DNA of 64,000 bases from Candidatus Omnitrophota bacterium (GCA_029261065.1 JAJDCB010000011.1:111168-175167), one strand, 5' to 3'; positions 3,001 to 60,166 are shown, counted from the first letter of the stretch. Notes: generated by a model from the sequence alone, not told the origin. Program-made: numbers and translations.

Positions 3001-6000
3001 ATATTGATCTTCAAAAATATGCTTTGGCCAGTCGTTACTATAATCGTGCTGAGCAGTTAACAAACAAGACATCTAGTTCTTTAAAAGAGAAAAGTAATTC
3101 ACCCATGATTGGTTTTGCAAGAACGAAAAGCGGTCTGCTTTTAACAGAACATGAGATTGATATTGATATATTGGAAAACTACGATGGAAGAATTATTACT
3201 AAAGAGCAGATAGTGTATTTGGAGAGCGCTCTTAAATTAGTTCAATATTATTTAGGAAGAGAACGCGTAGATCTTCTTGTTGCTTTTGAAAAATTAAAGA
3301 AGATGGTGGATCTTGGTTTGATAAGAGCAGCCCCATTTGATCGTATTTATGGAACTATTAAAGAAGACCGGACATATGTTCATGGGCATGCAGGTGTAGA
3401 AAAAGGTATTTACTTAGATAACGTTATTCTTCAAAATCCGCTTGAGTTAATTTTTACTTTGATAAATTTGGTTGGCAGCCTTCACGGACAATCTCATTCT
3501 GAAAATAGTGCTTTAAAGTTTGATTTTATTTTAGATAACGGATTCTATGAGGGATTAGTTGAAAGTGGAATCGTTAATCAAACAAAAAAAGATTCTGCTG
3601 ATCAGCCTTCGATAAAATTATTGCAGAATATCATTGTAAGATTCAATCAAGAGTCTCTTCTTATTCGTCAATCTGTAGAAATTCCTAAATATTTACATAC
3701 GGTTGATCTTCAAGCAATTATAAATCACTACCTGTTTGCAATATTACTGAGAATCGCATCAGGGGAGGTTGTTATTTCAGATCGATTAAGGACTTCCATG
3801 AAGCAGGCAATACCACCATTGGAGAATATTCCAGATCATTTGGTTATTGTTGCGGTTCCAGGCACATTTGATCCACCTCATTTTAATCATATTATTGCTT
3901 TGTTACAGGCTATGCTATTTGCAATGCAAAATGAGAAAGGAAGGCGGGTGACATTTATAGGATTTTTAAAAAATAATTTATTCGATGATGAGGAAATAGG
4001 TTATAAACCGTTTAAATCAAAAGCCTATCACAGAGAAGCCATGGCCAAGCAATTAACGGACATATTTTTTCCTTTAATCAATTTTGCAGGTGCCGATTTA
4101 GGATACCTTCAATCGCATTACTATCAAGAAAGTAGCTTAAGACTGATTGATTTGAATCGTTATCAAACAATGGGTTCTCCTAAACCTGTAAGTTTTTACT
4201 TAGGCTCTGGTGCAGACAATTTTGTTAGAAATCGAAAGGCCTTGCATTACATGCTAGGAGAAAGACATGGTGAATTTGAAAACGTAACATTTAGGATTGT
4301 TATGATTGATGCGCGTTTTAATTCTACATTGGAAGGTGGCTCTGTACATGAGATTCCCTTTGATCAATCCAAATTCAGGCAACTCACACAATATTATAGA
4401 AGACCATATGAAATTCATGCGATCGTAGGACTTCAGGCGACACATTTTAGATCAACAGATCTAAGAGGAGGGTTTGGGGACAGTCATGTGCCGGTATCTA
4501 TACGGAATTATTTTAGAATGAATGCATTATATTCTTTGGACAGAATAAGACAAAGCGCACAAAATACAACTTTAGATGATACGGCATTAATTAGATTTTC
4601 CAGTATATATTCTCCAGGCTATGGCGTTAGTGATCATTTAGAATCTCTTAATTGGGAGTTGTTGCAGGAGTTTGAACTGACAATACATCAATTTTATCTT
4701 TTTCACGGTGATGAAAAAGTGCAAGGCTATACTGAACTGAAAATAGGAAAGGGAACTCTAGTTTATATCCCGTTACCGAATTTAGAAGGTCACCCTGAGG
4801 AATTGTTTAATTTTCAAAAGGCTCTAAGAGATCGTTTACGTTCCCTTTACAGCAGACATCAGGAGGGAGCCTTTAAGCAACCCATCATTTATGTTAATCA
4901 TGATCCGGGTAAACCGGCTTCCCTTGTATTTGATCAAGAGGTAGCTCAGTATCCGGATATTCGTCAGTCGATTGAGTATCATTGGGGCAGAGGCTATGTT
5001 GAACACGACCTTCTTTATCAATTAACAAGCAACGTTCCTTCAGCTAGCGTAACGGTATTAGGATTGGAGGACATATTACCTGAATCGACTGTTGAATTAG
5101 GCAATGGCGTTGATGTTGTCTATTTTAATCCAGCTGATGTAACGAAAGGACGTTTTAGAAAGGAATATGCTGTTTCTGAAAATCAGCTTATTGTTTTTGC
5201 TCCGGCAAGGTTAGTTAGAGAAAAAGGTCATATGGATATACTGCAGGTTGCTTTATTACTGCAAAAACAGGGTCAATTTAAGGATGTTACCTTTGTGTTT
5301 GCGGGCTTAGATGATGATCAGAATTTTTTAACAGAAATGAAGAGGTTTATAAAGTTGCAGAAATTGCAGTATAGATTTTTATTTGTTGGAAATCTTAAGG
5401 GGCATCGGTTATTAGAAGGTTATCGAGATTCGGATATAGGATTATTAGCATCACATAGTGAAGGGACGCCTAGATCAGTTATCGAAATGCAGGCAATGGG
5501 TCTGCCCGTTATTGCAACAAATGTTGGAGGAACGGCAAATGTTATTCTAGATGGGGATTCCGGTTATATAGTAGAAAAGGAAGATGTTCCTGACATCTTC
5601 TTTAGATTAAAGGTGTTGCTCTCAAGTCAGGTTATCCGTACAGAATTTGGTGCTGTAGGCCGGGCAAACACTGTTAACAAATTCTCATTAGAAAAATTAG
5701 CTCAAAGGCATACAACTTTTTACACATCGTTATTATCCTCGGAAGATAATGGAAAGATAGATCCATCGAAGAGACAATCTTCACCGATGGAGTCATTATT
5801 CCTACCGCATGACGGCAATGTCATCGAAGACATCGTTTTTGATCCAACCGATAAAGATGCTGAAATAGTTTATAAAAGTGGAAGACGTGAAGAGATAGTT
5901 TCTAATTACATGCCTGAATTTGACTCAGAAATTGTTAAATTTTATAGCTACAGCAAAAGATCAGCCGCTGTTACCTATATCAATGAAAAAGGATTGGTAT

Positions 6001-9000
6001 CTTTAGCCGTGAAACTTAAAGACGCGCCACCGTTTGAGATGTTCACTCCTTTTGATTTCGTTCGTGGAGTGACCGACGTTCGGTTTAATTTAACAGAGAG
6101 TGGCATAGCAGCTATATTCGATTTTAATTATGATCCTGTAAATCCACCGGTACGTATTAAAATAGTTAATATGATAGATTCCAAATTGATTGAAGATATG
6201 TTTACAGGAGCTGGAATCAAAAGGCAGCTATCGGAGCGTTTAGGAAAAGAAGTTCATCCTAATATTGAAGTCCGCTTTTTTGAATCATCATATGAAGGTT
6301 TTGTGATAGTAACCTATAACACACTAGAAGAGAGGAAACGCAAAGTAACAGTTGTACAACTAACAAGCTCACCATTATCTTTAGAAGATCAAGGAAAGAC
6401 GGGTACATATAATAAATCATCACTCATCATGCCTCAGAATGTAGAAGCTGGAGTTGCAACTTTAGCACCAAGCAGTGCAACTTTTACTCTAACCGAACGA
6501 TTAAAATTGATGTTAAGCACTCGCGCTCCTCCAACAGGGTTTAGCACATTTGTTCTTTTAACTATCTTATCAGCCTTAATGTTTTTAACATCCCCCGCAG
6601 CATTACAAGCACAAGAATCTTTTAATCCAATCCATCCAAATATTCATTTGGTTCATGACAATAAAAATAAAAGAATTGTTCCTTGGTCCACACCAATAGA
6701 ACTGCACGATGAAAATAACAAGTGGGTTATGAATTATTTTAGTGGCATGCCCCTTGATTTGTTATTGAATTTTGAACAAAGACAAATTAAAGCACAGAAG
6801 GCTAGAACGAAACAAGCTTTTCCTGAGCCGATTCAAGTTAGGCGAACGAAATCATTAACGATTCACTTTAAGTATATAGAAGAAGGAACGATTAACATCA
6901 TTTTACACGATGCCCATGATGCAACACGAGACATTAGATTGCCACCAGCGCACCTGCAAACAAGCGATAAAGCTTCCGTTACTTTGTTTGTCTCGAAAAT
7001 TCCATGGAAGAATATGAAAGAAGTAGGCGCTATTTCGATCGAATGGGATAAAAGCGAAGAGGCTGGTGTAACGGTTGATACTTTAGAAGGTTTAAAAGTT
7101 CGCCCAATCATCGTTATTCCGTCAGTAATAATAGTAGAATTTTTAGATTTTTTTGAAGCAAAATTAAATCAACCATGGTTGCAAAGTAAATATCAAAAGC
7201 AGGAAAAAGATTATCCGCATAGTTCAAGCCCGGTAGGTACGGAAACAATAAGTTTGATTTCATTGTTCATTGATCCTGCCTTCGTTGTTGGAGCAGTAGT
7301 GATATTAAGTGCTTGGTTCTGGAAGACGCGATTACGTCATCGTGTATTCAATACATATGTAGACGATTTCATCATTGGGATTTTACATTTCGTTGGAGGA
7401 TTGGTTTTTGTAATTGTCTCAGGATCTTTTCTAGATTTCCCTTCGGAACAGCCTGATTTTGAAAAAATAGGTCCGTTTGGATTTTTAATAGCGACTATTG
7501 TTTTACTTATAAGCGGGCTTTTTACAGGAATTATTGGATTTACTTTATTAAAAGGGTTTGTTGGGTATACCCTAACCTTTAATCCGAAACGTATTTTAAC
7601 TTATAAAGATAACTGGAATAATATGGGGTTTCGCTATTTTCGTTATAATACGGATCTATATAGAGATTACTTAGAGACATTAGTTCCAGAAAAATTTGAA
7701 TTGGCTATAAACAATGGAATAAATGAATTGAGAAATCAATTATTTATTGAAAATGAAAAAGGTGAGGGAAGTGATGAAGCAAATTGGACGCAGCATGAAC
7801 AATGGATTAAAAATTATGCTTCCTTGGCAGCCAGTGAATATATAGATCCGATACAACGTGAGTTTATACGGAATGAGGTAATCAATCTTTTCAGGTGGGC
7901 TTATGAGCTTACTGAAATAGCAAATATTAAAACGGGTATTATTCAAGAATTAAAAACTATCGGTGGAGATGAAGCGGTGCAGATGATTGACGATATTATT
8001 TCTTCAAAGGATGATAGATATGATATGGAGGAATTAGTAGGTGTATTAGGGAAAATAACTGGACCTACAGAAGGAATTTCTACACTAGAGAAAGCAATTA
8101 AAGGTTCAGGAAAGAGGACAGCAAAAAGTGCCGTTCAACTTTTAGGCAAAAAAGAAGGTTCGCAAGTAAATCAAATTCTTTTCAATATTATTAAAGAAAG
8201 ACGTCAAGGTTTAGTGTACGACGCTGTTGTTGGCCTTGGGAAAAATATGAGGGAGGACGTCTTATCAGAGCTGATTGATATTTTGAGAAACACGCCTGAA
8301 AGGGTAGGGGAGGAAGCTGCACATGCATTGGGTTCCATTGGAGATGTGAAACACATTCCTGATTTAATGACAGTTCACATATTAAATCGTGGTCCAGGTT
8401 CCTATTCAAATGTTCACCCCTTTAGTGAAGCATTCAAAAAAATATGGAATCGAAATAAAGATAAGACAAATGCTGTAAATCAAGATTATATGGGGCTTGC
8501 CGTTATTTTGGCCTTTATGCATTCAGGAGATCTATTGCACACACCATTATTTGAAGCTCGAAATAAGGGAATAATTACGGGCTATCTATTTAATCATGCC
8601 GAACATCGGCAAGTTACCAATCGTGGTTTTGTTCCGTTAACTCTAGAGCCGGGAATATTAACAGCATCTTATGGGTTTGTTTTTGAACGTAAAGAATTTA
8701 GCATTGAGAAAATGGCGAATAAGCTTGGAATTGCGCCAACATTAATATTGGAAGTTAATGAATCTGGCGAAAAGGACTCTCTTGTGTGGGGGGATGGATT
8801 ACTTCGTGGGAAGGTATCCAATGAACAGATATATCTATATTTACCTTCTGTTCAACTAATACATAATGCCCAGAAGGGTATTTTTGATGGTTTCAACGAC
8901 GTTAAGCTGTTGGGTATTGCACCTAATTTAAGTAAAGTATTTTATGTAATGCCTTATGGGGAAGTATTTAGTTGTTGCATGTTAGGGAACGAATCTATTA

Positions 9001-12000
9001 ATAGAATACAATTAACAGCTAAAGCACATATGAAAAGATTCAAACAGACCTTGAAGAAAAATATTAAGGATTATTTGAATGGACTTACACCAATACAAAG
9101 GGAGAAGTATTTTACGATTGTACCGGTTTCTGGTGAAGGTCAGGAGCCTAGATTAGGAAGAGTTGAAAAGAAAGATCATGAACCCGTATATCTTGAAAAA
9201 GGTGTTCTTTATCAGTTGAATAATAAATTGATAGAGAAGCTACAAGCTGAATTCAGTAAAACCGAAGATAAAGTACTACAAGCACTAGATTTTATTTTCT
9301 GGGAAACTATTTATGAAAATCCTTTAAGAGGATTGCTGCTTGATCTGGAAGATTTCAATGGCCGGTATGGGGTATCCGGACATATGGAAGCAGGTAAGGA
9401 ACGATTAATTCAAGTTTCAGCGAAATTTGATCTTAAAGGATTGAATATAGTTGTAGAGAATGAGGAGATACTATTAGAAGAGGAAGAAAAAAGCACAACG
9501 GCTATTAATGGATTTATTGATCCTAGTCAGGTTATCTATAGAGGGGATGAGAGGACAATACCTGTTAGAAACTTATATGATGTTTTAAGTGTAGTTGCTA
9601 TTTATCATGATTCAACAACCGGCATGGTTATTTATGAAAAAGTTCTTAAAGGAAAAGCGATCATAACAGTTAATGATCAAATTATAAAGATAGATGGTAG
9701 GGAAAGTTTGAGTCAATTGGTTCCAGAAGGAAGTAGAGTTATTATTGAGGAAAAAGAAAAGGTATCAAGCAAGGAACCCCAGTCTCCTGGCATCTCTGAT
9801 CGAACGCCAAGAATCAGTGCCGAAGGAGAAAGAAACTCCTCACCACTAGAGAACCATCTGATGCGCAAAGTTAATAGATTAATGGTCTATTCCAGGAAAG
9901 CAATACGAGCAAAGAGTTACACATTAAAGGAGCATAATGCTCTTCATCGCAGCGCTTATGATCAATTTAATGATTTGATCCGCAACCACAGGCAATTTTT
10001 ACTTAATCCACCAGAGAAGCACAAAAGCAGAGTGATTGACATGCTTATCTCAATGACTGTGGCATTTCCATCGATGCATTATGATTCACAAGTTGATGTA
10101 ACGGACAATATATATAAAACTCAGCATTATTTAAAAGAATTATTATTAATGGATGAAAATATGTTGCGGCAAAGAGCCTTATTAAGGCGGATTGCAATTG
10201 AATTGAACAAATATAAAACCTCCATTGATTCAGTTTATCCTAAATTTAGGATGGGTGTTTCGGCTGTGGTTGATCCATTTGACTATATTCATGATTTGTG
10301 GGAATTGCAGAATATGATAGGATCAGTTGAAATAAGCCTGTCAACGCATCCGCTTTCGTCAAAGAAAAATGTGTTGCTTTTGTCCGTCGGGCAAGAATAT
10401 AATGCGCCACAAAAGTTTACTCACTTCACACTATTTTCCGGACATACGCATCATTTTGAATTTAAATTTGTTCTTTCCGATAAAGATACAGCCATTGCGT
10501 CGGATTATTTGGCTAAGGGATTGACAAGTTATGTTCTAAGATTCACCCGTGATCGAGAAATACATTTAGCTATTTATAATCAAATCACTAATAAATGGAG
10601 AATAGTTTATGAACAAAATGAGGTATCCAAGAATTTATATGATTTCGGAATACTCTCATCGATAAATAATAGACTTACATCGGATAAATTTCCAACATCC
10701 CGTGATACTTTTCACTCAAGCCCTATCAATACTGCCGTGATGTTTATGGGGCGTCCTGTTATGAAGCTTTATACGGGGCATGCACGCGTGCTTTATGAAT
10801 CAGGTCTACCGGAGACGGTCGAACTGTTTAAGAAAGTTGCGGTGGCCTTGGATACACTTGATCCTCAGCAAGAAGAAAACGGGCTTGAAAGAGTTTTCAA
10901 TGTGACTAAGGAAAACGATCCAAGAGCTTTCTATGTTCTTTTTAGCATTCTTCAGGTGGCAGAGTACTTTAAGTTGAGACATTTGATTAAGCAAAATCAA
11001 TGGGCCATTGATATTAATACTTTTATAGGATACAGCCAAGGATTATATGCTGCGGCTTTCTCGGCAGGATCTTTATCCGTTGAGGATTTTGTTAAATTGT
11101 TAATTAATAGTTACAACTATGACACAAAGAATCCATCTAACGAAGAAGAGCGGGTGGGTATCATTATTGAAGGGGAAGATGTGGGCGCAAATAATAATCT
11201 TGTATTTAGGTTACAGCATGTTTTTCCATTATTTGAAACCATTCAATATTTATCTCCAGATATGATTAATGGACGTATTTTGAGTAGGCAGCTCGGTCAG
11301 CTGAAAGATTATCTGTTTACTAGATATGGAAAAGATGTTCAAGTTTCCCTAGATATGGTAGCAAACACGATCACACATTCTACTGGATTAATTGACAAAC
11401 GAAGATTGTTTGAACAATCCATAAAAGATGATGGCATTCAATTTCAAAAGCCTCAAATTCCTATTGTATCGATGAGTGGAGAGCAACTTATAACAGAACC
11501 TCGTCACATTGTTGATGAGTTAGGTGGAATCTTTGATACTAAAATTTTTATTGCCGATGCCATGTCCCAATTAACCCAACGCAATCTGGACTTTGTTTTT
11601 AATCTATCTTTAGAAAAAGATAAATTTATCAAGCGACTTTTTAGACTGCATGATTTAAGAATTCCTTTGGGCACATTTCAGGATTATTTGAGTGAGAGCG
11701 GTGCATTTGGCAGGAGCGGTTCGCCTTTTAAGGCTAATATTTCCAATCTTAAACATCCATCGTTAAGACAAAATTCTTCTCCTCATAAAACAAGAAAAAA
11801 TAGAGATGAAAGAAATCATTCGTCACAAATAATAACGAGTGAGGTGCAACAGTCTTCAACTGTCGATTTGTATACACAACTAGATGAAACAATAGAAAAA
11901 ACGAATAATTTATACTTAAAGAAATACACGATAGGTATAGGCAAGGATGTATACAGCATAGCTACTGATCCGTTAGGTGGTTATTTGCGTGTGGGGCCGG

Positions 12001-15000
12001 TTGTTATTATAAATAGAGAGCATTTAACGCAAAGTATTTCAAATTTGTATCAACAGCATATTTCAATGACAGTTACAGATTTAAATATTAAATGGAGATC
12101 ATTTGTTATTCCAATCATTGCCGCTATGGTACATCATCGTGACGCAATTAAAGATTCTGTTGTCTTTGAATTTGGTTCTGGCCGTGGACTCCTGATTCAC
12201 GAGGCGCTTAAATTGGGTGCTAAGCGGGTGATAGGAATTGATAACAATATCGAAGAACTAGAAAGATCTGTTCAATTGTTTCGAGGATTGAAATATCCTG
12301 TAAAACTTATTCTTGGTTTGGATAATTTGAAGAATGTAAATATGCAAGAAAATTTATTAATACACGATAATATTGAGAGATGGTTGACGCTGAATGCCAA
12401 AGAGCGTCAACAAATTATGGGCACTGATGTACCTCTGTATATTGGAAATATCGGCGAGTTTTATGTAGTTCATGACATGTTGATAGATAGTTTTGTAAAT
12501 CAATCCCGTTTAACTTTCGATTTATCTATTTTGGGAGGCTATGATGGTTCAATAGGTTTTGGCACTGCAGTAACGATTGATAGGTTAAGAAAATTTGGTT
12601 GGAAGGTCAATTTGGTTCCTTCTCAAACGGGAGAGTTAGGTTTTTATGCGATTGTCTTTGGATCTGATTCGAAAATGAAAAGCTCAAACCCGCTCCATTC
12701 AAAGAGGTCAAGGTTATCTAATTCCAGCTCTATGCAAAAAAATAATCCGGAGAAGCTTGTTGAAGCTGGCTTTGTAGGTATCGGTATCGCAAAGGATAAA
12801 CAAACGGCTCAGGAATTTCGGGAAGCTCGTGCACATATTGTTATTCATGGCGATTATCGCAATAAGGATAAATTGTTATTAGCTATAGGGCATTCTTCTT
12901 CATCAAGTGCCATTATGTCTTCAGAGTACAGAAGGACACCAACGTCTTCCCCATTTATTGCGATACACGAAAAAAGAAAAGGTATTGAAGAAAATAAACA
13001 TATAACAAAATTCCTCCAATTACTAACTTTTGGCACGACCTTATTGATATCTGGCGTAGCCCATGCACAGACAGGGGATAGTGCCAATTTGGAAAACAAC
13101 GAATACGGGGCGATAGAATTTCCTGGGTTGCCGATAATTATGGAGCATACAAAACGGGTAAATATTTATACACAAGAAGGGTTTATTATTCCTGGATTTA
13201 CACCGACAGAAGAGATTGCCTTTATGAGTGTATTATTAATTTCGTTGATATTATCTGCGAAAATAATTTTTACTTACATAAAGAATAAGACAAAAGAAAA
13301 AAAGAAGGTTTATAGCGCGAAAGATATCCTTAAATTTATTTTTTCAGTGACTATTTTGGCAATCGCTTTTGATCATTTAGCGAAATTTTTAGCTGTAACT
13401 ATATTTCTAGAAACATTAGGAGATATTACTTTACATTACGTATTACGATTTCAAAGCGTTACGATTGTCATTCAACAGACATTTGAATTTGCATTAGGGG
13501 TTATCTCAATAACGTTATTAGCAAACAAATACAAGATGTTCACAGTAAAAAGTATTCAAGTCGCGATGATATCCCTTGCTCTGATCTTTGCTGGCATACC
13601 ACAAAGATTTTCTGCCAGAGGGTTACCCGTGATAGATTTTATTCCCTTAAAATTTACTCTCGGGTTTAGTCCTGCGGATTTTATGGTGGTAGTAGGTGGT
13701 ATAATTTTTCCTATTGTTGTTTTCTGGAAGTTGTATATGTGGGGCTTAAATAAAATGTTTGGTCATAAAATAGAAAATAGGGTGTTTACAATTCTATTAT
13801 TGATCAACGCAGGCTTTATAGGAGCGCTGGATTTTTACGCGCCAAGTACACTGGAGCAGTATGAGAGTATTTTGTCATGGATAAGTCTTCCCGTATTATA
13901 TGGTTCAACAAAAATTATTAGTCATTTCATCAGAAAAGTATTTGATCAACCATTAGGCAGCTCTTCTCCTCTTACAAAAATAGATCTCAAACGAATAGAT
14001 AGATTAAAAGAGCATATTGAAATAGATTACAAAACAGGAAGATTTAGGCTTATTCAATCAGTGAAAATGATGTTTCACTTCATCATGGTTCGTCATGGAC
14101 TCACCTTCGCAAATATAAAAAAGATAAATCAAGGCCTAAAATATTTTGGACCTCTTGGAAATTTATCGCCCCCTGGAATAAAGACCATTCACACGCATTT
14201 AATTTCAAATTTATACAATTATTATGAACGATACGCTTTAGAGAAAAGGTTAGTGATGGTTTCAAGTGAAATTTCAAGAGCCATCCAAACGCGAGAATTG
14301 ATTGCAGAACAATTAAGGCCGTTATACCGAGAAAGAATTGAGACGTCTGAAAGTCATTTGGCCAATGAAATGAACTTTGGAACTTTGGAGGGAAAGGCAT
14401 TTTCTGAAATAACTCCATATGAAACTCGGATGTATGAACGGATATGGGTGGATAGAAATTATTTATTGCCCTATCCACAAGGGTACAATTTTTTAAGGTT
14501 GTTTGATCAAGCTTATGAACTGCTTAACACAATTAATACAAGCTCTCATCAAACAATGACCACTCTAGTTTCTCATGGTGTCATGATCCAGGTCGCGAGA
14601 GCTCTATTGGGAGACAAGGAAATTGTCGACCAAGATGGTTGGATCGATTTGGGCCAAGGAATGTTACCAAATGCTCAATTAATTTTTATAGAGAAGGATA
14701 CGGGGCGAATAGAAATGCCATCAATATCTTTAACTTCAAGCCCTTTAACTAATGCCTTCAATCCCACAAAGCCAACTGTTCTTATGTGGGTAAGAAAAGG
14801 GGGCAGCACCCTATTTCAAACACAGGGGAATAGGACAAAAGGAATTAGGGCGCGGATCTCTAATCTTTATTCTTCTTCATCGCTAATCGACGGTGGTCGA
14901 ATACCAATACTAATAGCAGATCCTTACAAAAGTCTAATCATAGAATGGGCGAATAAGCCTGATCAAAGCCAAGACTTTTATTTAGGGGAAATACAATTAC

Positions 15001-18000
15001 GTGAGGAAGGTAGTACGGATAAAACATCGAAAAAACGATTCGTCTATGTTCGAGAAACAAAAAGAAGAGGGGCTCATGGCGATAGCGAGTCAAACTTTAA
15101 ACTTATGTTTTCTTCCAAGGAGATAAAGGTCGACAATGATGAATTTATAGAGGAATTTGGACAATTTGTTAGATTGTACAAAAAAGATGATGGTTGGCAA
15201 TTGGAGCGGTTTTATCCACTTGGTTCGAAAAGCGATATGGTTAATCCGTATGGTGGAACAGGCGTGGATACCCTCATTTGGGAGTATTTTACGACGGCCA
15301 TTAAATCACAATATCACGGTTTTTATAATTCAGGAACAGAAAATTATAGAGCTGTTAGAAGCTATCTAATCAATAGTGCGCGGGGTAATGGCTTACTTCA
15401 ATCGATAAAAATAGGACACAGTAGAAGGCAAAATTTAGAAAAAGTAAAAATGGATGGAAGGTTTTTCGGAGAGGAAAATTTTAGGGCGCTGTATATACAG
15501 AATATGAGTAGAAAAATAAAATTATTTTCATTAATAGCGCTAGGAGAAAACGAATACCAGGCGCACACGATTGATGAGTCATTTTTAGGAACGGAATTTT
15601 TAATTGATGGAGATAGGGTAGTAGTTACCTTCCCTTCAGGTGACGTCATTAAAGACGGAATAAAGGTTGGGCATATTCAAGAAGTTACAAGAACTATTTA
15701 TGTAAACAGCAAGCCAGTTTCTTCACCACTAGTAAAAATATTCTACGATAGCTTAAGCAATTCCACTCGTCAATTCTCCGGTAAGCAAAGCGAAGAAACA
15801 CAAAGAGCCATAGATGGTCAATTTACTCGTGTTGCTGGACAAAACGAGATGGATATCTTCTTAAGAGATTATGATCCAATCTTAATGGAGGTGAGGCGTT
15901 CATTACAAAATTTAATGGGTCAAATGTTTATGCAAACATCGGAGCTTCTTTCAAACGGGTTTTATTATATCAATTCGAATACACCTTCACCGAGAGATGA
16001 TTTCAACATGAAATCAAGACAGAATATTGTTTTTCGACGGTTCGGTGTCGGTGATTTAGGTTTACTTGGGCTGCACAGATCAGCAATGGTGAATAATATA
16101 GACATTAAAGGAACTGGAGACGATGGCATCTATCCATTTCTTCTCAACGATCCTTTAAAAGGTTTCAACTCAAGATTTTTAGAATTTGGTAACTTACGAT
16201 GGTTAGCAAGAGGAGAAGCATTAGTGGCATTACGTTTACAAGAAGTTGCCCTAGAAGCATTAGGTGAACCGATCATGATTTCTACGCCTTTTGATATTAT
16301 TTCGACACAATACATTCCATTTAATGGAAGTATTATTTCGTTAGAAGATTATTTTATAAACTATATTGAGCAGCATCCCCAAGCCAGAAACTATTTTGCA
16401 CAATTTAATGCAGGTAAATCTGAAAAAGTGACCAACACAAAATCTATTCAAGAAGACATAAAATATTTTTTATCAACATACGGTGTGGCGCAGCTACGTT
16501 CATGGTTGCCAACAGATATGCGATCCGCGATAACAGACATTGCGACATCAAAGGGTTTAGAGGTATTATTTGAAGAACTTTTTCGTCTTCATAATGAAGA
16601 TTTCGTTAAACCTCTTGAAGCGGGTGACCCGAATCAATATCGTTCTTTGATCAAGAAGTACAATATGTCTCAAATAATTAGCATATTAAACAAATCCGCC
16701 ATTCATTTGGGTCGTGCCATTGGTGTTATTTTAGGAATTGGAGCAAACGTTGAGCAATCTTTTGCTAAAAGAAATTTAACGGGTTTCTTTATAGGTAAAG
16801 ACTACGATGATGGATATGTACCATCAAGGTTTCAAGAGCAGTTTATTTATAAAAGAGTAGCTGAGCCAGGATTAAAATGGCACGTTTCACAAGGAGTACT
16901 CACGTTACAGGATTTGGGTGAATTTTTATTGGGCCGTGATGCAGAGAATGTGACGCGTGCTGCAGAAAAAATACTAAAAGAAACGGTATACGAAACGTAT
17001 ATACAAGTCCAAGAAACCATCATCGAAGACCCAAATCAAATTGTTTTTCAACCAGCCTTTATTAAAGGTCTTAGACAATGGCGAGACCAGAAAGGTTTTG
17101 CATTGTTGAAAGCCAAGACATCATCAGCATTAAGTCTTATTCAATCAATAAGTTATCGAGAATTGACACCATTTATTTCTGACAGCACCTCCAGCCCGTT
17201 AGTGAAATTTGATGCTAGATCCGCAACAAGTTCTTCGCCATTAAAATCCAAAGTTCTTAAAATATTTCCAAAGGAAAAAGAGACGGTTTTATATCAGTTT
17301 TTAAATAAACTAAAATCAATTATTCCTGAAAATCTCATTGATTCTGTAGATCGGGCTAGTACTTATGAGGCCTGGGACGTTCATCCGGAATATGGTTATC
17401 CTAGACGGAAGCAGGTGGAACTCAAAATTTTATTGGACAATTATAAGTATGACGCGCACACATTAAATGAGGCGGACGAAGAAAAGGCTGTTACGGATAT
17501 TCTTAAACTAGCTGCATGGATTGTTATTGGACATAAAAGTGTTTTAGGTCCAAATATAAATGAAGATAATAGGATTTTCCTTGAAAGTGTTGATGAAGTT
17601 ATGGCCCATATAAAAAATAAAAATAATATATTTAAGGTTGTTGAATATTTTAAATTAAATCGGTATAGATACTTGCCAACTATTTTAAGGGCACGTGTCG
17701 CATTTCATCTTTATAAGTCCGGAGATACAGTAAATGCAAAAAGATTGTTTATATCTGCAATGAGACAAGCACAAAAACATACTTTAGAAATAAATGATGC
17801 TTTTCGTTTATATGTTTATATTGCTCATCAACATTTATTGTTAGGCAGAATTGCTACAGGGAGGCGAATATTACGGAGAATAATGTCTGATGGGAAAATA
17901 GAAAAATCATTTGAATTGACTGTGGCTTTAAATTATTTAGATTCCGGCTATGGGTTCCATGCTTTAAAAATTGTTCAGCCTATGGGAGCAGAAGATCAAT

Positions 18001-29402: not shown

Positions 29403-30494
29403 ATGATGAAAATTTTAAATATCACTGTTTATATATTTGTTGCAACATTTTTGTTTTCAAGTACTTACGATGTATCAGCTTTAGAGGAAAATCGTAGGAC
29501 CCCAGCGGATTTTCTTGTGGAGGTGGGCAAAACTGACCTTCAAAAGGGGAATATCCAGCAGGCCATTCATGAGTTTAGTAAGGCCCTTATGATGGACCCT
29601 CATCATAAGGAAGCCAAGCAGCTTTTAGTCCAATTTGGCATTGAAGATGGGCTGTATACTAAGCAAAAGACGCATTTAAGCCGCATTTCCGATATGGGTG
29701 ATCATATCCGCTCTTACCGCGCCAAACTAGAAGATTTAGAGCGTCAAAAGGCTGACCTTAAAAATCAATTTGCACGATTACAGGTTGAGCATTTTTCAAT
29801 TATCAGAGAAAATAAAAATAAAGACCTAGAGATTTCAAAGCTCAAAACCACAATCACCGCGATCCAAAAGACAGCCAATCATAATAAGGGTATTTATGAA
29901 GGCAAGGTCGGTCAAATGGATCAGGCAAACGAATATCATCGTGAAAGTCTGCTTGATATGCAGGAGGCGATGAACCAAGAAAAGGAAGCTGCATTAGCAC
30001 CGCTTGCTAATCATAGAAAATTGAAGCAAAATTATGAAGCATATCACGATAAATTCGATAAGAGTATTGAGTATTCTGCGTATTTAGAAGAGGAGTTATT
30101 AAGCCTTTCCGATAAATATCATTCCTTAAACAGTCAAATTTCTGATCAGTATGTTCATCAAGATAAACTGATTCATGTATTAGAAGATTATCTTAAGCTT
30201 CGTGAAGCAAGTTTAGACGATGCTTTGGATGAGGCGTTATATAAGCACGTTGATTTGACTCAGGCGGACAGTATGGTTTTAGCCAAATTAAATGAGCTTA
30301 TTGACTTACATGATGATGTGGATCAAAAACGAAATCGTATTGATGATCTTCATGATGATCTGATGATTAGTAAAGATATGATCTTGGATCGCAATAAGGA
30401 GATTAATGATTTACAAGAAGAAATACAAGGGGCGGATCATTATATTCAAATCCTCTTGGATGAGCAGCGCGAGAAGAGAGAAATGTTAGAATAA
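29403..30494 (+). CDS. Secreted or membrane-anchored coiled-coil protein (hypothetical)
   Basis: N-terminal signal/anchor MMKILNITVYIFVATFLFSSTYDVSALEE, a TPR-like segment, then a long heptad-rich region. Followed by an intrinsic terminator. Confidence 0.55.
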   Translation: MMKILNITVYIFVATFLFSSTYDVSALEENRRTPADFLVEVGKTDLQKGNIQQAIHEFSKALMMDPHHKEAKQLLVQFGIEDGLYTKQKTHLSRISDMGDHIRSYRAKLEDLERQKADLKNQFARLQVEHFSIIRENKNKDLEISKLKTTITAIQKTANHNKGIYEGKVGQMDQANEYHRESLLDMQEAMNQEKEAALAPLANHRKLKQNYEAYHDKFDKSIEYSAYLEEELLSLSDKYHSLNSQISDQYVHQDKLIHVLEDYLKLREASLDDALDEALYKHVDLTQADSMVLAKLNELIDLHDDVDQKRNRIDDLHDDLMISKDMILDRNKEINDLQEEIQGADHYIQILLDEQREKREMLE

Positions 30495-42965: not shown

Positions 42966-43514
42966 CTACTGCATGGTCGCTTGGATTTGGTTCATGAGTT
43001 GTTTAAGCTTTGGATTTTGCATGAGTTTTTGAACCTTAGCATTGCCTTCCAAACGTGAGGGATCGTAACTTAGTAAATCGCTCATGAGTTCTTGATCAGC
43101 TAGAAGAGCCGCAATTTCAGGATCGCTAAGCAGGGTTTGAATTTGATCCATGAATTGAGGGTTGCTTAAGATGGATCCCTGCAATTGCTGAATCTGTGAT
43201 TCAAATTCAGAATTACCCCCAGCCCCTCCTAAGGCACTTAGTCCGCCAAATCCACTTAAAAGAGAGCTATTACTACCAGATAATGAGGATGCTGCACTAT
43301 TTGTGACATTAATGCTGACAATGTTGGAATCATCAACGGAGAGTTCTCCTAAATTTTTTGTTTTAATCGTATATTGACCATTTCCAAATCCAACGACCTC
43401 TCCCTTGATGACTGTACCGTCTTTAAGGGTGATCGTTTTTTGCGTCTCGGCATAGGCTGGGTTGCCTAGGATTAGGATGAGTGAAAGTATGAGAAAGGGT
43501 GTTCTAATTTTCAT
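42966..43514 (-). CDS. Secreted hypothetical protein with a Gly/Ser-rich linker and an STI1/DP-like C-terminal repeat
   Basis: Signal peptide MKIRTPFLILSLILILGNPAYA-ET. NPQFMDQIQTLLSDPEIAALLADQ...NPKLKQLMNQIQ resembles STI1 (Hop DP) repeats. Confidence 0.45.
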   Translation of the reverse strand: MKIRTPFLILSLILILGNPAYAETQKTITLKDGTVIKGEVVGFGNGQYTIKTKNLGELSVDDSNIVSINVTNSAASSLSGSNSSLLSGFGGLSALGGAGGNSEFESQIQQLQGSILSNPQFMDQIQTLLSDPEIAALLADQELMSDLLSYDPSRLEGNAKVQKLMQNPKLKQLMNQIQATMQ

Positions 43515-56979: not shown

Positions 56980-57750
56980 ATGAAGACATGTTTTCTTATC
57001 CTTATAGCGCTTTTTTTGTGTCATCCTACCCAGGCGGAGATTATTTCTCTTAAATCAGGAGAAGTCATCCATGGTGCCATTTCTAAAGAACATGATGATT
57101 ATATTCAAGTTGAGAATCGATGGGGTATTCCTTTAACCTATTATAGAGAAAGTATCGAATCCATAGAGCCAGATCCTGTAATTGTTCCAGAAATTGTTCC
57201 TGATGTGGTTGAAGAACAAGATCTAAAAGACTTTGTTGTTGAAGAGCGTCGTGGGGTTTATCTTAAAAAGGATAAAGAAGAAGGTTTATTGGGTGATTTT
57301 AATCATGTTCATGGAGAAGTTCATGCCGATGAACTAGTAAATACATCAAATCCACAAGATACGAATGCTTGGGCAATTGAGGTGTTACGCATGTTATCTA
57401 TGGCAGCGGAATTTTATGCTCAAGATCAAGGTGGTATATATCCCGATGATATTGCTTTATTAACAGATTCTGAAAAAGTTTATATCGCTAGAAATTATTG
57501 CGATACAACAGAGAATGGTTATGAATTTTCCTGTAAATTAGGGGATAAATCTTATCTTTTTACGGCTGCACCTGTCGATAAAAATAGAACCAATGCCACC
57601 ACGTTTATGGTGACAACAAAAGGATCTTTGAGTGTTCAACGCCATGGCGTTAAAGATCTTCATGATCCTTCCAAAGAAGTTAATATTATTTCAAAGAAGC
57701 CCACCTTAAACTTTTATCACATGTTAAGACAGATTGAATCGCCTTATTGA
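56980..57750 (+). CDS. Secreted hypothetical protein
   Basis: Signal peptide MKTCFLILIALFLCHPTQA-EI. No recognisable catalytic motif. Confidence 0.45.
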   Translation: MKTCFLILIALFLCHPTQAEIISLKSGEVIHGAISKEHDDYIQVENRWGIPLTYYRESIESIEPDPVIVPEIVPDVVEEQDLKDFVVEERRGVYLKKDKEEGLLGDFNHVHGEVHADELVNTSNPQDTNAWAIEVLRMLSMAAEFYAQDQGGIYPDDIALLTDSEKVYIARNYCDTTENGYEFSCKLGDKSYLFTAAPVDKNRTNATTFMVTTKGSLSVQRHGVKDLHDPSKEVNIISKKPTLNFYHMLRQIESPY

Positions 57751-59566: not shown

Positions 59567-60166
59567 ATGTGTAAAGAGTTTATTGTAATTACGTTGTCTC
59601 TTGCGGGACTTCTTTTTTCAGCTGGCAATGGTTTATGCCAGGCATATGAGCAGGAGGATTTCAACGTAGAAAATCAAGAAGCATTTGATGAAGAAGCGTT
59701 TAATGAAGAGTATTTAACAGAAGAGAACCTTTTTGAATATCCTAAATATTATGGAACGAACGCAAATAGACCTGTGATGAATTTTTTTGAGATTTCCTCA
59801 TTAAATATTCAAAAACCAAGTTTGGGAGCATTTCATACCAAGGGTTATGTCGTTGATATCTATCAATGCCCAGTATGTGAAAAGGAAGAAGAATGTTCGC
59901 CATGTGTGTCGAATTATATTATATTATCAGAGAAGAAGAAGCTTTTGGATAAGTCGTTATTAGACAGTAGCGAAATTTTGATATTTGTGGATGATACGAG
60001 TATTTTTAAGATCGGGAAAGAATATACCGTTTTATTTCAGATTTTAGATGTCAAAACAATTGATCAAACGTTAAACAATCTCAAGCTTATTTATGCAACG
60101 GCTATTAAGGAAGAACCGATAGTGCCGTCAGATGACGATGTGGATATAAAGGAGTTTAAATATTAA
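59567..60166 (+). CDS. Secreted acidic hypothetical protein
   Basis: Signal peptide MCKEFIVITLSLAGLLFSAGNGLCQA-YE, an acidic EEAFNEEYLTEEN run and a CPVCEKEEECSPC Cys cluster. Confidence 0.4.
   Translation: MCKEFIVITLSLAGLLFSAGNGLCQAYEQEDFNVENQEAFDEEAFNEEYLTEENLFEYPKYYGTNANRPVMNFFEISSLNIQKPSLGAFHTKGYVVDIYQCPVCEKEEECSPCVSNYIILSEKKKLLDKSLLDSSEILIFVDDTSIFKIGKEYTVLFQILDVKTIDQTLNNLKLIYATAIKEEPIVPSDDDVDIKEFKY

Follow-up and report, generated by a model that had tools for sequence, protein, structure and literature searches.

Introduction

Giant open reading frames (ORFs) with many predicted membrane helices are established in Omnitrophota (Kizina 2022; Seymour 2023; West-Roberts 2023; a 2026 complete-genome preprint). 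West-Roberts left open whether these proteins are cleaved, the cleavage points being not known, and reported C39 and S8 peptidase domains; in the 2026 preprint, signal peptides called in later chunks of the four largest proteins (at least 100,000 aa) were suppressed as chunking artefacts. Here we describe a giant ORF in a stretch of 64,000 nucleotides from Candidatus Omnitrophota bacterium (GCA_029261065.1, JAJDCB010000011.1:111168-175167), referred to below as the window. The left edge of the window cuts into this ORF, which occupies nt 3-23405 of the plus strand (stop codon 23403-23405) and has at least 7,800 codons and zero in-frame stops; residues are counted from nt 3, and all ORF features given below are on the plus strand. 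As the frame is open at the left edge, its true start and the N-terminus of the protein lie upstream of the window. Deep inside the ORF are two segments, SP1 and SP2, that look like Sec signal peptides. Our analysis indicates that both are probably internal start-transfer segments of signal-peptide type, oriented N-in/C-out, and that each opens a membrane or exported cassette of a modular giant protein. The cassettes would be chained at a short junction motif, [A/G/S/T]-S-S-P-[L/V/I/M/F], called the SSP motif below.

Like the giant membrane ORFs of Omnitrophota ('Archaeovorin'-type), the ORF studied here is longer than 20 kb, with many helices and a small number of divergent domains, and its detectable relatives include proteins from Omnitrophota metagenome-assembled genomes (MAGs). 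It differs from the 'Archaeovorin' features given by West-Roberts in that SecA_DEAD, C39 and S8 domains are absent from the visible 7,800 aa and no PilZ gene is found downstream or among the flanking genes. It is important to note that the N-terminal part of the ORF is outside the window, and SecA_DEAD, C39 or S8 may therefore exist there. Term searches of the Omnitrophota giant-ORF papers did not return the SSP motif or signal-peptide-like segments placed after it, neither 'motif' nor 'cleav' occurs anywhere in the 2026 preprint, and among the papers searched none pairs Omnitrophota with 'polyprotein'.

Three better known systems resemble this arrangement. The giant ORF shares with viral polyproteins (Flaviviridae, bunyavirus) the single long frame and internal N-in/C-out hydrophobic segments before an exoplasmic domain. 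In these viruses, the internal signals carry small residues at -3 and -1 and are cut by host signal peptidase, and other junctions are cytoplasmic (C-prM, prM-E and E-NS1 of Flaviviridae; the bunyavirus glycoprotein precursor). The ORF in the window, in contrast, is a bacterial chromosomal gene without an identified protease domain, and the likeness is one of function, not of homology. Type II signal-anchors and the first helices of multi-pass proteins have the same N-in/C-out orientation and follow the positive-inside rule, and many of them pass the -3/-1 test; SP1 and SP2 differ in that they follow 1,500-2,000 soluble residues and adjoin a junction motif, and SP2 seems too polar for a stable anchor. 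MARTX toxins are very large proteins in which unrelated enzyme cassettes are separated by short sites, and an internal cysteine protease domain (CPD) carries out processing between the effector domains. The giant ORF also consists of unrelated cassettes with short recognisable junction sites, but no CPD or RTX repeats were found in it, it has many helices, and its junction is S-S-P-hydrophobic as compared to Leu-small.

Results

SP1 and SP2 are present where the initial annotation had placed them, in one uninterrupted frame. SP1, FSTFVLLTILSALMFLTSPAALQAQE, spans aa 2180-2205 (nt 6540-6617) and in its cleavage-site form reads FSTFVLLTILSALMFLTSPAALQA-QE. SP2, KHITKFLQLLTFGTTLLISGVAHAQTG, spans aa 4332-4358 (nt 12996-13076) and reads KHITKFLQLLTFGTTLLISGVAHA-QTG. 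More than 1,500 residues without helices precede each segment, which is the first hydrophobic one to follow them. The 15 residues upstream contain three Lys/Arg in SP1 and five in SP2, while the 15 residues downstream contain none in either case and have three and six acidic residues, respectively. Sec signal peptides are typically N-terminal, whereas SP1 is preceded by at least 2,165 and SP2 by at least 4,317 in-frame residues.

The two segments differ in their inner anatomy. SP1 belongs to module 5, which is opened by the junction motif T-SSP-L (nt 6366-6377, aa 2122-2125), and sits 55 aa after this motif. Its n-region, RLKLMLSTRAPPTG (nt 6498-6539, aa 2166-2179), holds the three Lys/Arg. 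It is followed by a 16-residue hydrophobic core, FSTFVLLTILSALMFL (nt 6540-6587, aa 2180-2195), for which the apparent free energy of membrane insertion (dGapp, 19 residues) is about -0.1 kcal/mol. This value is of membrane-helix grade, whereas a typical h-region has about 7-15 residues and is shorter and less hydrophobic than a membrane helix. The c-region TSPAALQA (nt 6588-6611, aa 2196-2203) has P at -6, L at -3 and A at -1. Consequently, the candidate signal peptidase I site A2203↓Q2204 is L-Q-A↓Q and not AxA (arrows mark the bond). The -3/-1 rule still allows for L at -3. SP1 may equally well remain in the membrane as an anchor.

SP2 belongs to module 10, opened by the junction motif T-SSP-F (nt 12945-12956, aa 4315-4318). 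Its first residue, K4332, lies 14 residues past this motif, in agreement with the roughly 15 aa estimated in the initial annotation. The n-region FIAIHEKRKGIEENKHITK (nt 12954-13010, aa 4318-4336) has its five Lys/Arg among the last 15 residues, and the h- and c-regions FLQLLTFGTTLLI-SGVAHA (nt 13011-13067, aa 4337-4355) lead to a true A-H-A↓Q site, A4355↓Q4356, with G at -5. The claim that both segments are complete Sec signal peptides with AxA sites thus stands for SP2 and not for SP1. The core of SP2 has 13-16 residues and, as expected of the apolar h-region of a signal peptide, is short and less hydrophobic than a membrane helix. Its dGapp of +4.2 kcal/mol lies outside the range of stronger helices and inside that of native cleavable signal peptides of the genome and the family (1.8-6.5); the core seems too polar for a stable membrane helix. 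Judged by its sequence, SP2 looks like a complete substrate of signal peptidase I, which may cut it at AHA↓Q.

How far does this look exceed the background? With a textbook n/h/c rule set the giant ORF gave one strict match, SP2, and six loose ones. Shuffled sequences gave 0.43 strict matches, and the internal regions of related large proteins gave 1.2 strict and 3.3 loose matches per 7,800 aa. As internal controls we used native small exported proteins encoded in the window at 42966-43514 (minus strand) and at 56980-57750, 59567-60166 and 29403-30494 (plus strand), whose signal peptides end in AYA↓E, TQA↓E, CQA↓Y and VSA↓L. We dropped a position weight matrix derived from 29 signal peptides of the family and the window as non-discriminating, since even the real signal peptides had leave-one-out scores from -20 to +30 (median 11.6). 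What sets SP1 and SP2 apart from the background is not the pattern but the placement, together with the long helix-free run before each, the strong asymmetry of charge in their flanks and, for SP2, the hydrophobicity sum.

The placement is defined by the SSP motif. SSP is the top-enriched tripeptide of the giant ORF, which contains 17 copies as compared to 1.3 expected (13-fold); the maximum among 1,000 shuffles was 6. The copies are at aa 3, 33, 690, 1926, 2122, 2408, 3279, 3572, 3925, 4315, 4654, 4912, 5240, 5730, 5744, 6847 and 7727. Nearly always the next residue is hydrophobic, and usually a small residue precedes. Codons of the SSP copies vary, indicating selection for the peptide rather than for the DNA sequence, and one SSP (1.9 expected) was counted in the other 11,722 aa of protein that the window encodes. 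The motif splits the ORF into units of 200-1,200 aa, and where a domain is recognisable one unit corresponds to about one protein. The motif could be a processing site, a site for a peptidyl-prolyl isomerase or a kinase, or a helix N-cap. Several look-alikes of degenerate form were seen on reading the sequence: GSPF at aa 630 (1890-1901) and aa 3906 (11718-11729), SSSSVL (1443-1460) directly before the first helix cluster, and SSNPL at aa 4227 (12681-12695), where two relatives, P0010 and P0046, have SSP after the methyltransferase unit.

Hydrophobic segments follow the motif more often than expected by chance. The ORF has about 14-15 hydrophobic spans, grouped in four clusters, and three of the four clusters start at most 55 aa past an SSP, a zone that makes up 11% of the ORF (binomial P = 0.005). 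For the family, counted over independent cases, the figure is five of eight (P about 0.001). SP1 and SP2 begin 20-55 residues after [small]-S-S-P-[LVIMF], and the spacing from motif to hydrophobic or signal-peptide-like segment is 7-55 aa in the window ORF and in the relatives P0046, P0007 and P0017.

Relatives of the giant ORF show comparable junctions. An exhaustive HMMER search with aa 3928-5127 matched only the PrmA-like methyltransferase and histidine-phosphatase units, in proteins of 1,000-5,300 aa with 25-33% identity. In six of the relatives [AS]SP[LIVMF] occurs about two times per 1,000 aa, as in the giant ORF, and in about 40 other matches its frequency is near zero; two of the six motif-bearing relatives (P0017, P0011) are annotated as Candidatus Omnitrophota MAG proteins. 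On the evidence of sequence, such distant relatives, with 25-30% identity in one module, make an Omnitrophota origin of the giant ORF probable. In P0046, SSP at residue 376 is followed ten residues later by AKFISILFAAGSLTILAPQATPA↓Q; in P0007, KLFLVTLLATGALTVASIGTVAA↓NE comes 18 residues after the SSP at residue 353; and P0007 and P0017 both have an ASP motif and then KIIKSMSVALATFITTGLIRVEALA↓QQ. The motif after the methyltransferase unit is conserved in position in P0010 and P0046. When P0007 is aligned with P0017, and P0046 with P0010, the blocks are interrupted at the motif or close to it, which suggests that cassettes have been gained and lost there. Specifically, P0007 carries about 1,060 residues beyond P0017, and their block stops right on the motif, at 2368/1340.

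With a profile of the methyltransferase-like module, neither a word-indexed search nor genome contigs gave a match; one metagenome locus was found, which probably carries P0046 itself. P0046 and P0007 are complete genes of 2.5-3.1 kaa (loci L002 and L005) with conserved synteny by replication genes. The gene order at these loci is dnaA-dnaN-gyrB-gyrA-glmS-TP_methylase gene-[large gene]-Pribosyltran gene-OTCace gene-DHOase gene, named after Pfam domains where no gene name is given. Past the last SSP near the C-terminus four of the shorter relatives have a conserved 'GGIDF(R/L)ALPI' (P0010 1143-1165, P0046 2345-2370, P0017 2224-2245, P0011 2540-2575), which is not in the window ORF. Many large relatives end in ..AA, ..SA, ..YA, ..FA or ..QA (P0001, P0004, P0005, P0009, P0012, P0013, P0020, P0030, P0031, P0037, P0043, P0045, P0048, P0050, P0058, P0067 and P0075).

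Signal peptides of the histidine-phosphatase relatives were compared in P0002, P0006, P0049 and P0054 and in P0001, P0004, P0009, P0014, P0028 and P0039. Several small relatives have N-terminal signal peptides, and the large ones carry a single N-terminal signal peptide without any later helices. In these organisms the histidine-phosphatase family thus seems to work outside the cytoplasm. At their ends, the genuine signal peptides at the N-termini of relatives read ..GFA↓Q, ..ASA↓QE and ..VSA↓QT, and SP1 and SP2 are alike (ALQA↓QE, AHA↓QT). A connection between the internal 'ALA↓QQITIPKPG' of P0007/P0017 and the N-terminal 'ASA↓QEITLPKPGEM' of the P0028 type was rejected, as only seven residues match and there is no BLAST homology. 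Convincing signal-peptide-like stretches were also seen inside other large homologues, outside the SSP lineage; one of these is MDTWKRIAVLLTFIGVFVFA↓LPSK at residue 3960 of P0018.

The segments downstream of SP1 and SP2 and the remaining parts of the ORF are as follows. After SP1 there is a polar domain of about 207 aa (nt 6612-7232, aa 2204-2410) that ends in H-SSSP and, by prediction, is outside the cytoplasm; neither a family match nor a homologue was found for it, and the AlphaFold2 single-sequence model of module 5 is unusable, with a predicted local distance difference test score of 38. Three transmembrane helices (nt 7254-7550, aa 2418-2516) begin 7 aa past the SSSP. Module 10 has about six further membrane spans after SP2 (nt 13215-13838, aa 4405-4612). 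Upstream, the first visible membrane cluster consists of about four helices (nt 1461-1985, aa 487-661), and the QSSSSVL run before it may be a degenerate junction. Module 11 (nt 13971-14744) is a single histidine-phosphatase domain (His_Phos_1, E = 1.9e-14) with SSP on both sides. This unit (aa 4657-4914, 258 aa) aligns end-to-end with proteins of 279-316 aa, i.e. it is roughly a whole stand-alone protein.

Besides histidine phosphatase, the recognisable domains and units are glycosyltransferase group 1, methyltransferase and TPR/HEAT repeats. Some further likenesses were noted by eye. GTFDPPHFNH (3861-3890) is like the HxGH motif of cytidylyltransferase/NadD, and its unit has a weak or no family match. 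GYSQGLYAA (11028-11054) is like the acyltransferase GHSxG motif, with weak MdcH and polyketide synthase matches. FEFGSGRGLL (12165-12194) is like motif I of S-adenosylmethionine-dependent methyltransferases, with a weak PrmA match. For the unit at aa 4915-5242 (14745-15728), Pfam gave a weak match to the tube protein of type VI secretion, Hcp/TssD (E = 0.0014; its 18.9 bits are below the gathering score of 25.8).

Between nt 1 and 20000 there is a single other ORF of at least 100 aa, at 14101-14478 on the minus strand, and Rfam and tRNA scans found nothing within the giant ORF. In the remainder of the window the genes are of normal size, as on an ordinary bacterial chromosome (mutL, mutS, comM, accA, rlmN, biotin-pathway-like).

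Discussion

From the sequence and position of SP1 and SP2, their flanking charges, the motif statistics and the cassette boundaries of relatives we infer the orientation, translocation and origin of these segments and any cleavage. The initial annotation had offered two options, a polyprotein whose products are separately exported or signal-anchor helices that set the topology of successive modules in alternation. The second option is the better supported of the two: it fits the three and five Lys/Arg before the segments and none after them, and the loops after SP1 and SP2 alternate in charge as the positive-inside rule expects.

If this is true, the chain would remain cytoplasmic through the TPR, cytidylyltransferase-like and glycosyltransferase units until SP1 emerges. 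After such a long cytoplasmic stretch the translocon would recognise SP1, and later SP2, and move the polar residues that come next to the other side of the membrane, about 207 aa in the case of SP1 and about 50 aa in that of SP2. The three helices at aa 2418-2516 would return the chain to the cytoplasm, where the HEAT, acyltransferase-like and methyltransferase units would follow. A second membrane cassette, with about seven spans, would then begin at SP2. By count, the end of module 10 would be outside, although this is uncertain, and the histidine-phosphatase unit would thus be placed outside the cytoplasm. Such a location agrees with the N-terminal signal peptides of its relatives. The signal-peptide anatomy of SP1 and SP2 is most simply explained as inherited from cassettes with former, or still functioning, N-terminal signal peptides.

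Several points weigh against start-transfer segments of signal-peptide type. The strict rule set also gave five internal matches in 9,862 aa of the window's ordinary proteins, all of them helices of multi-pass membrane proteins. Because the same rules flag ordinary membrane-protein helices, the signal-peptide look alone does not go beyond ordinary N-in/C-out helices. The thresholds of the placement statistic were set after the data had been seen. The orientation comes from a manual reading of charges by the positive-inside rule, and the hydrophobicity sums use values of the scale of Hessa et al. 2005. The number of spans in module 10 is uncertain, seven or eight. Finally, neither membrane unit could be traced in relatives: module 10 had no match in the HMMER search, the word-indexed search or the scan of GTDB representative genomes, and module 5 had no homologue in the word-indexed search.

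Among the other explanations, the one that survives best is a true polyprotein. A dedicated protease would cut at SSP, and the freed modules 5 and 10 would be exported by Sec and trimmed by signal peptidase I. One premise of this option has support, in that SSP-bounded cassettes make up the ORF, with SP1 and SP2 close to cassette starts and similar to the N-terminal signal peptides of relatives. The distance from SSP to the hydrophobic core is mostly 7-20 aa, the natural length of an n-region (SP2, P0046, P0007, P0017 and aa 2410-2418 of the window ORF). Moreover, the modules between motifs are of whole-protein size, the histidine-phosphatase unit being an example, and the motif marks cassette gain and loss. 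The peptidase domains and the open question of cleavage in the work of West-Roberts point the same way. On the other hand, the separate export of products proposed in the initial annotation left no sign, and neither did proteolytic release. Searches of Pfam, NCBIfam and PDB sequences, unannotated modules included, found no protease domain in the visible 7,800 aa, and SP1 is 55 aa away from its SSP. A cut after Pro would expose Leu or Phe at the N-terminus. Such N-termini are destabilising in bacteria with ClpS. In the single-chain model at least the SSP at aa 2408-2410 is outside the cytoplasm and the others are inside, and with sites on both sides of the membrane one protease could not reach all of them after insertion. 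We therefore regard a dedicated SSP protease as unlikely, even if it is the first of the rivals.

A variant of this idea follows the flaviviruses. By analogy with them, the internal signals of a bacterial polyprotein could be cut outside by signal peptidase I (AHA↓Q, LQA↓Q), and the chain cut or otherwise handled at SSP, to give many products. We consider this scenario doubtful.

SP1 and SP2 could also be ordinary transmembrane helices of one multi-pass giant protein, with coincidental small residues at -3/-1 and no cleavage. The rule-based pattern is common at ordinary helices and in related large proteins, SP1 has the hydrophobicity of a membrane helix and L at -3, and the 2026 preprint, as noted above, treats later-chunk signal-peptide calls as artefacts. 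A coincidence at ordinary helices is possible, especially for SP1. However, the hydrophobicity sum makes the core of SP2 too polar for a stable helix, and both segments share with the real signal peptides of the family a helix breaker at -5/-6, A at -1, Q at +1 and acidic residues early in the 'mature' part. They are also the first in their clusters and adjoin junction motifs. All this makes ordinary helices improbable as the full explanation; they have the same orientation as start-transfer segments and differ from them only in cleavability and origin.

That SP1 and SP2 are the N-termini of genes independently translated or transcribed within the long frame, as the internal starts or promoters considered in the initial annotation would imply, is very improbable: an in-frame ATG does lie inside the n-region of SP1 (M2170, nt 6510), ten codons before the core, and the lack of a Shine-Dalgarno sequence upstream of it says little because Shine-Dalgarno use is patchy in this genome, but 23.4 kb pass without a stop codon, there is zero ATG, GTG or TTG between SSPF and the core of SP2, and the ORF has 28 promoter-like sites as compared to 30 expected and no plus-strand terminator.

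Conclusions

Based on the results obtained, SP1 and SP2 are best regarded as internal start-transfer segments of a modular giant protein. Segments of this type, discarded elsewhere as chunking artefacts, are here placed non-randomly after a junction motif that marks cassette gain and loss. For structure prediction, the SSP junctions suggest on principled grounds where giant proteins can be divided into units. Where the lack of known cleavage points had blocked analysis, candidate cut sites are now concrete: after SSP, at Q2204 and at Q4356.

If nothing is cleaved, the ORF shows how very long chains might alternate cytoplasmic and exported blocks. If polyprotein processing is true, one gene would give separate cytoplasmic, membrane and exported products, and this would answer the question of whether the Omnitrophota giants are one chain.

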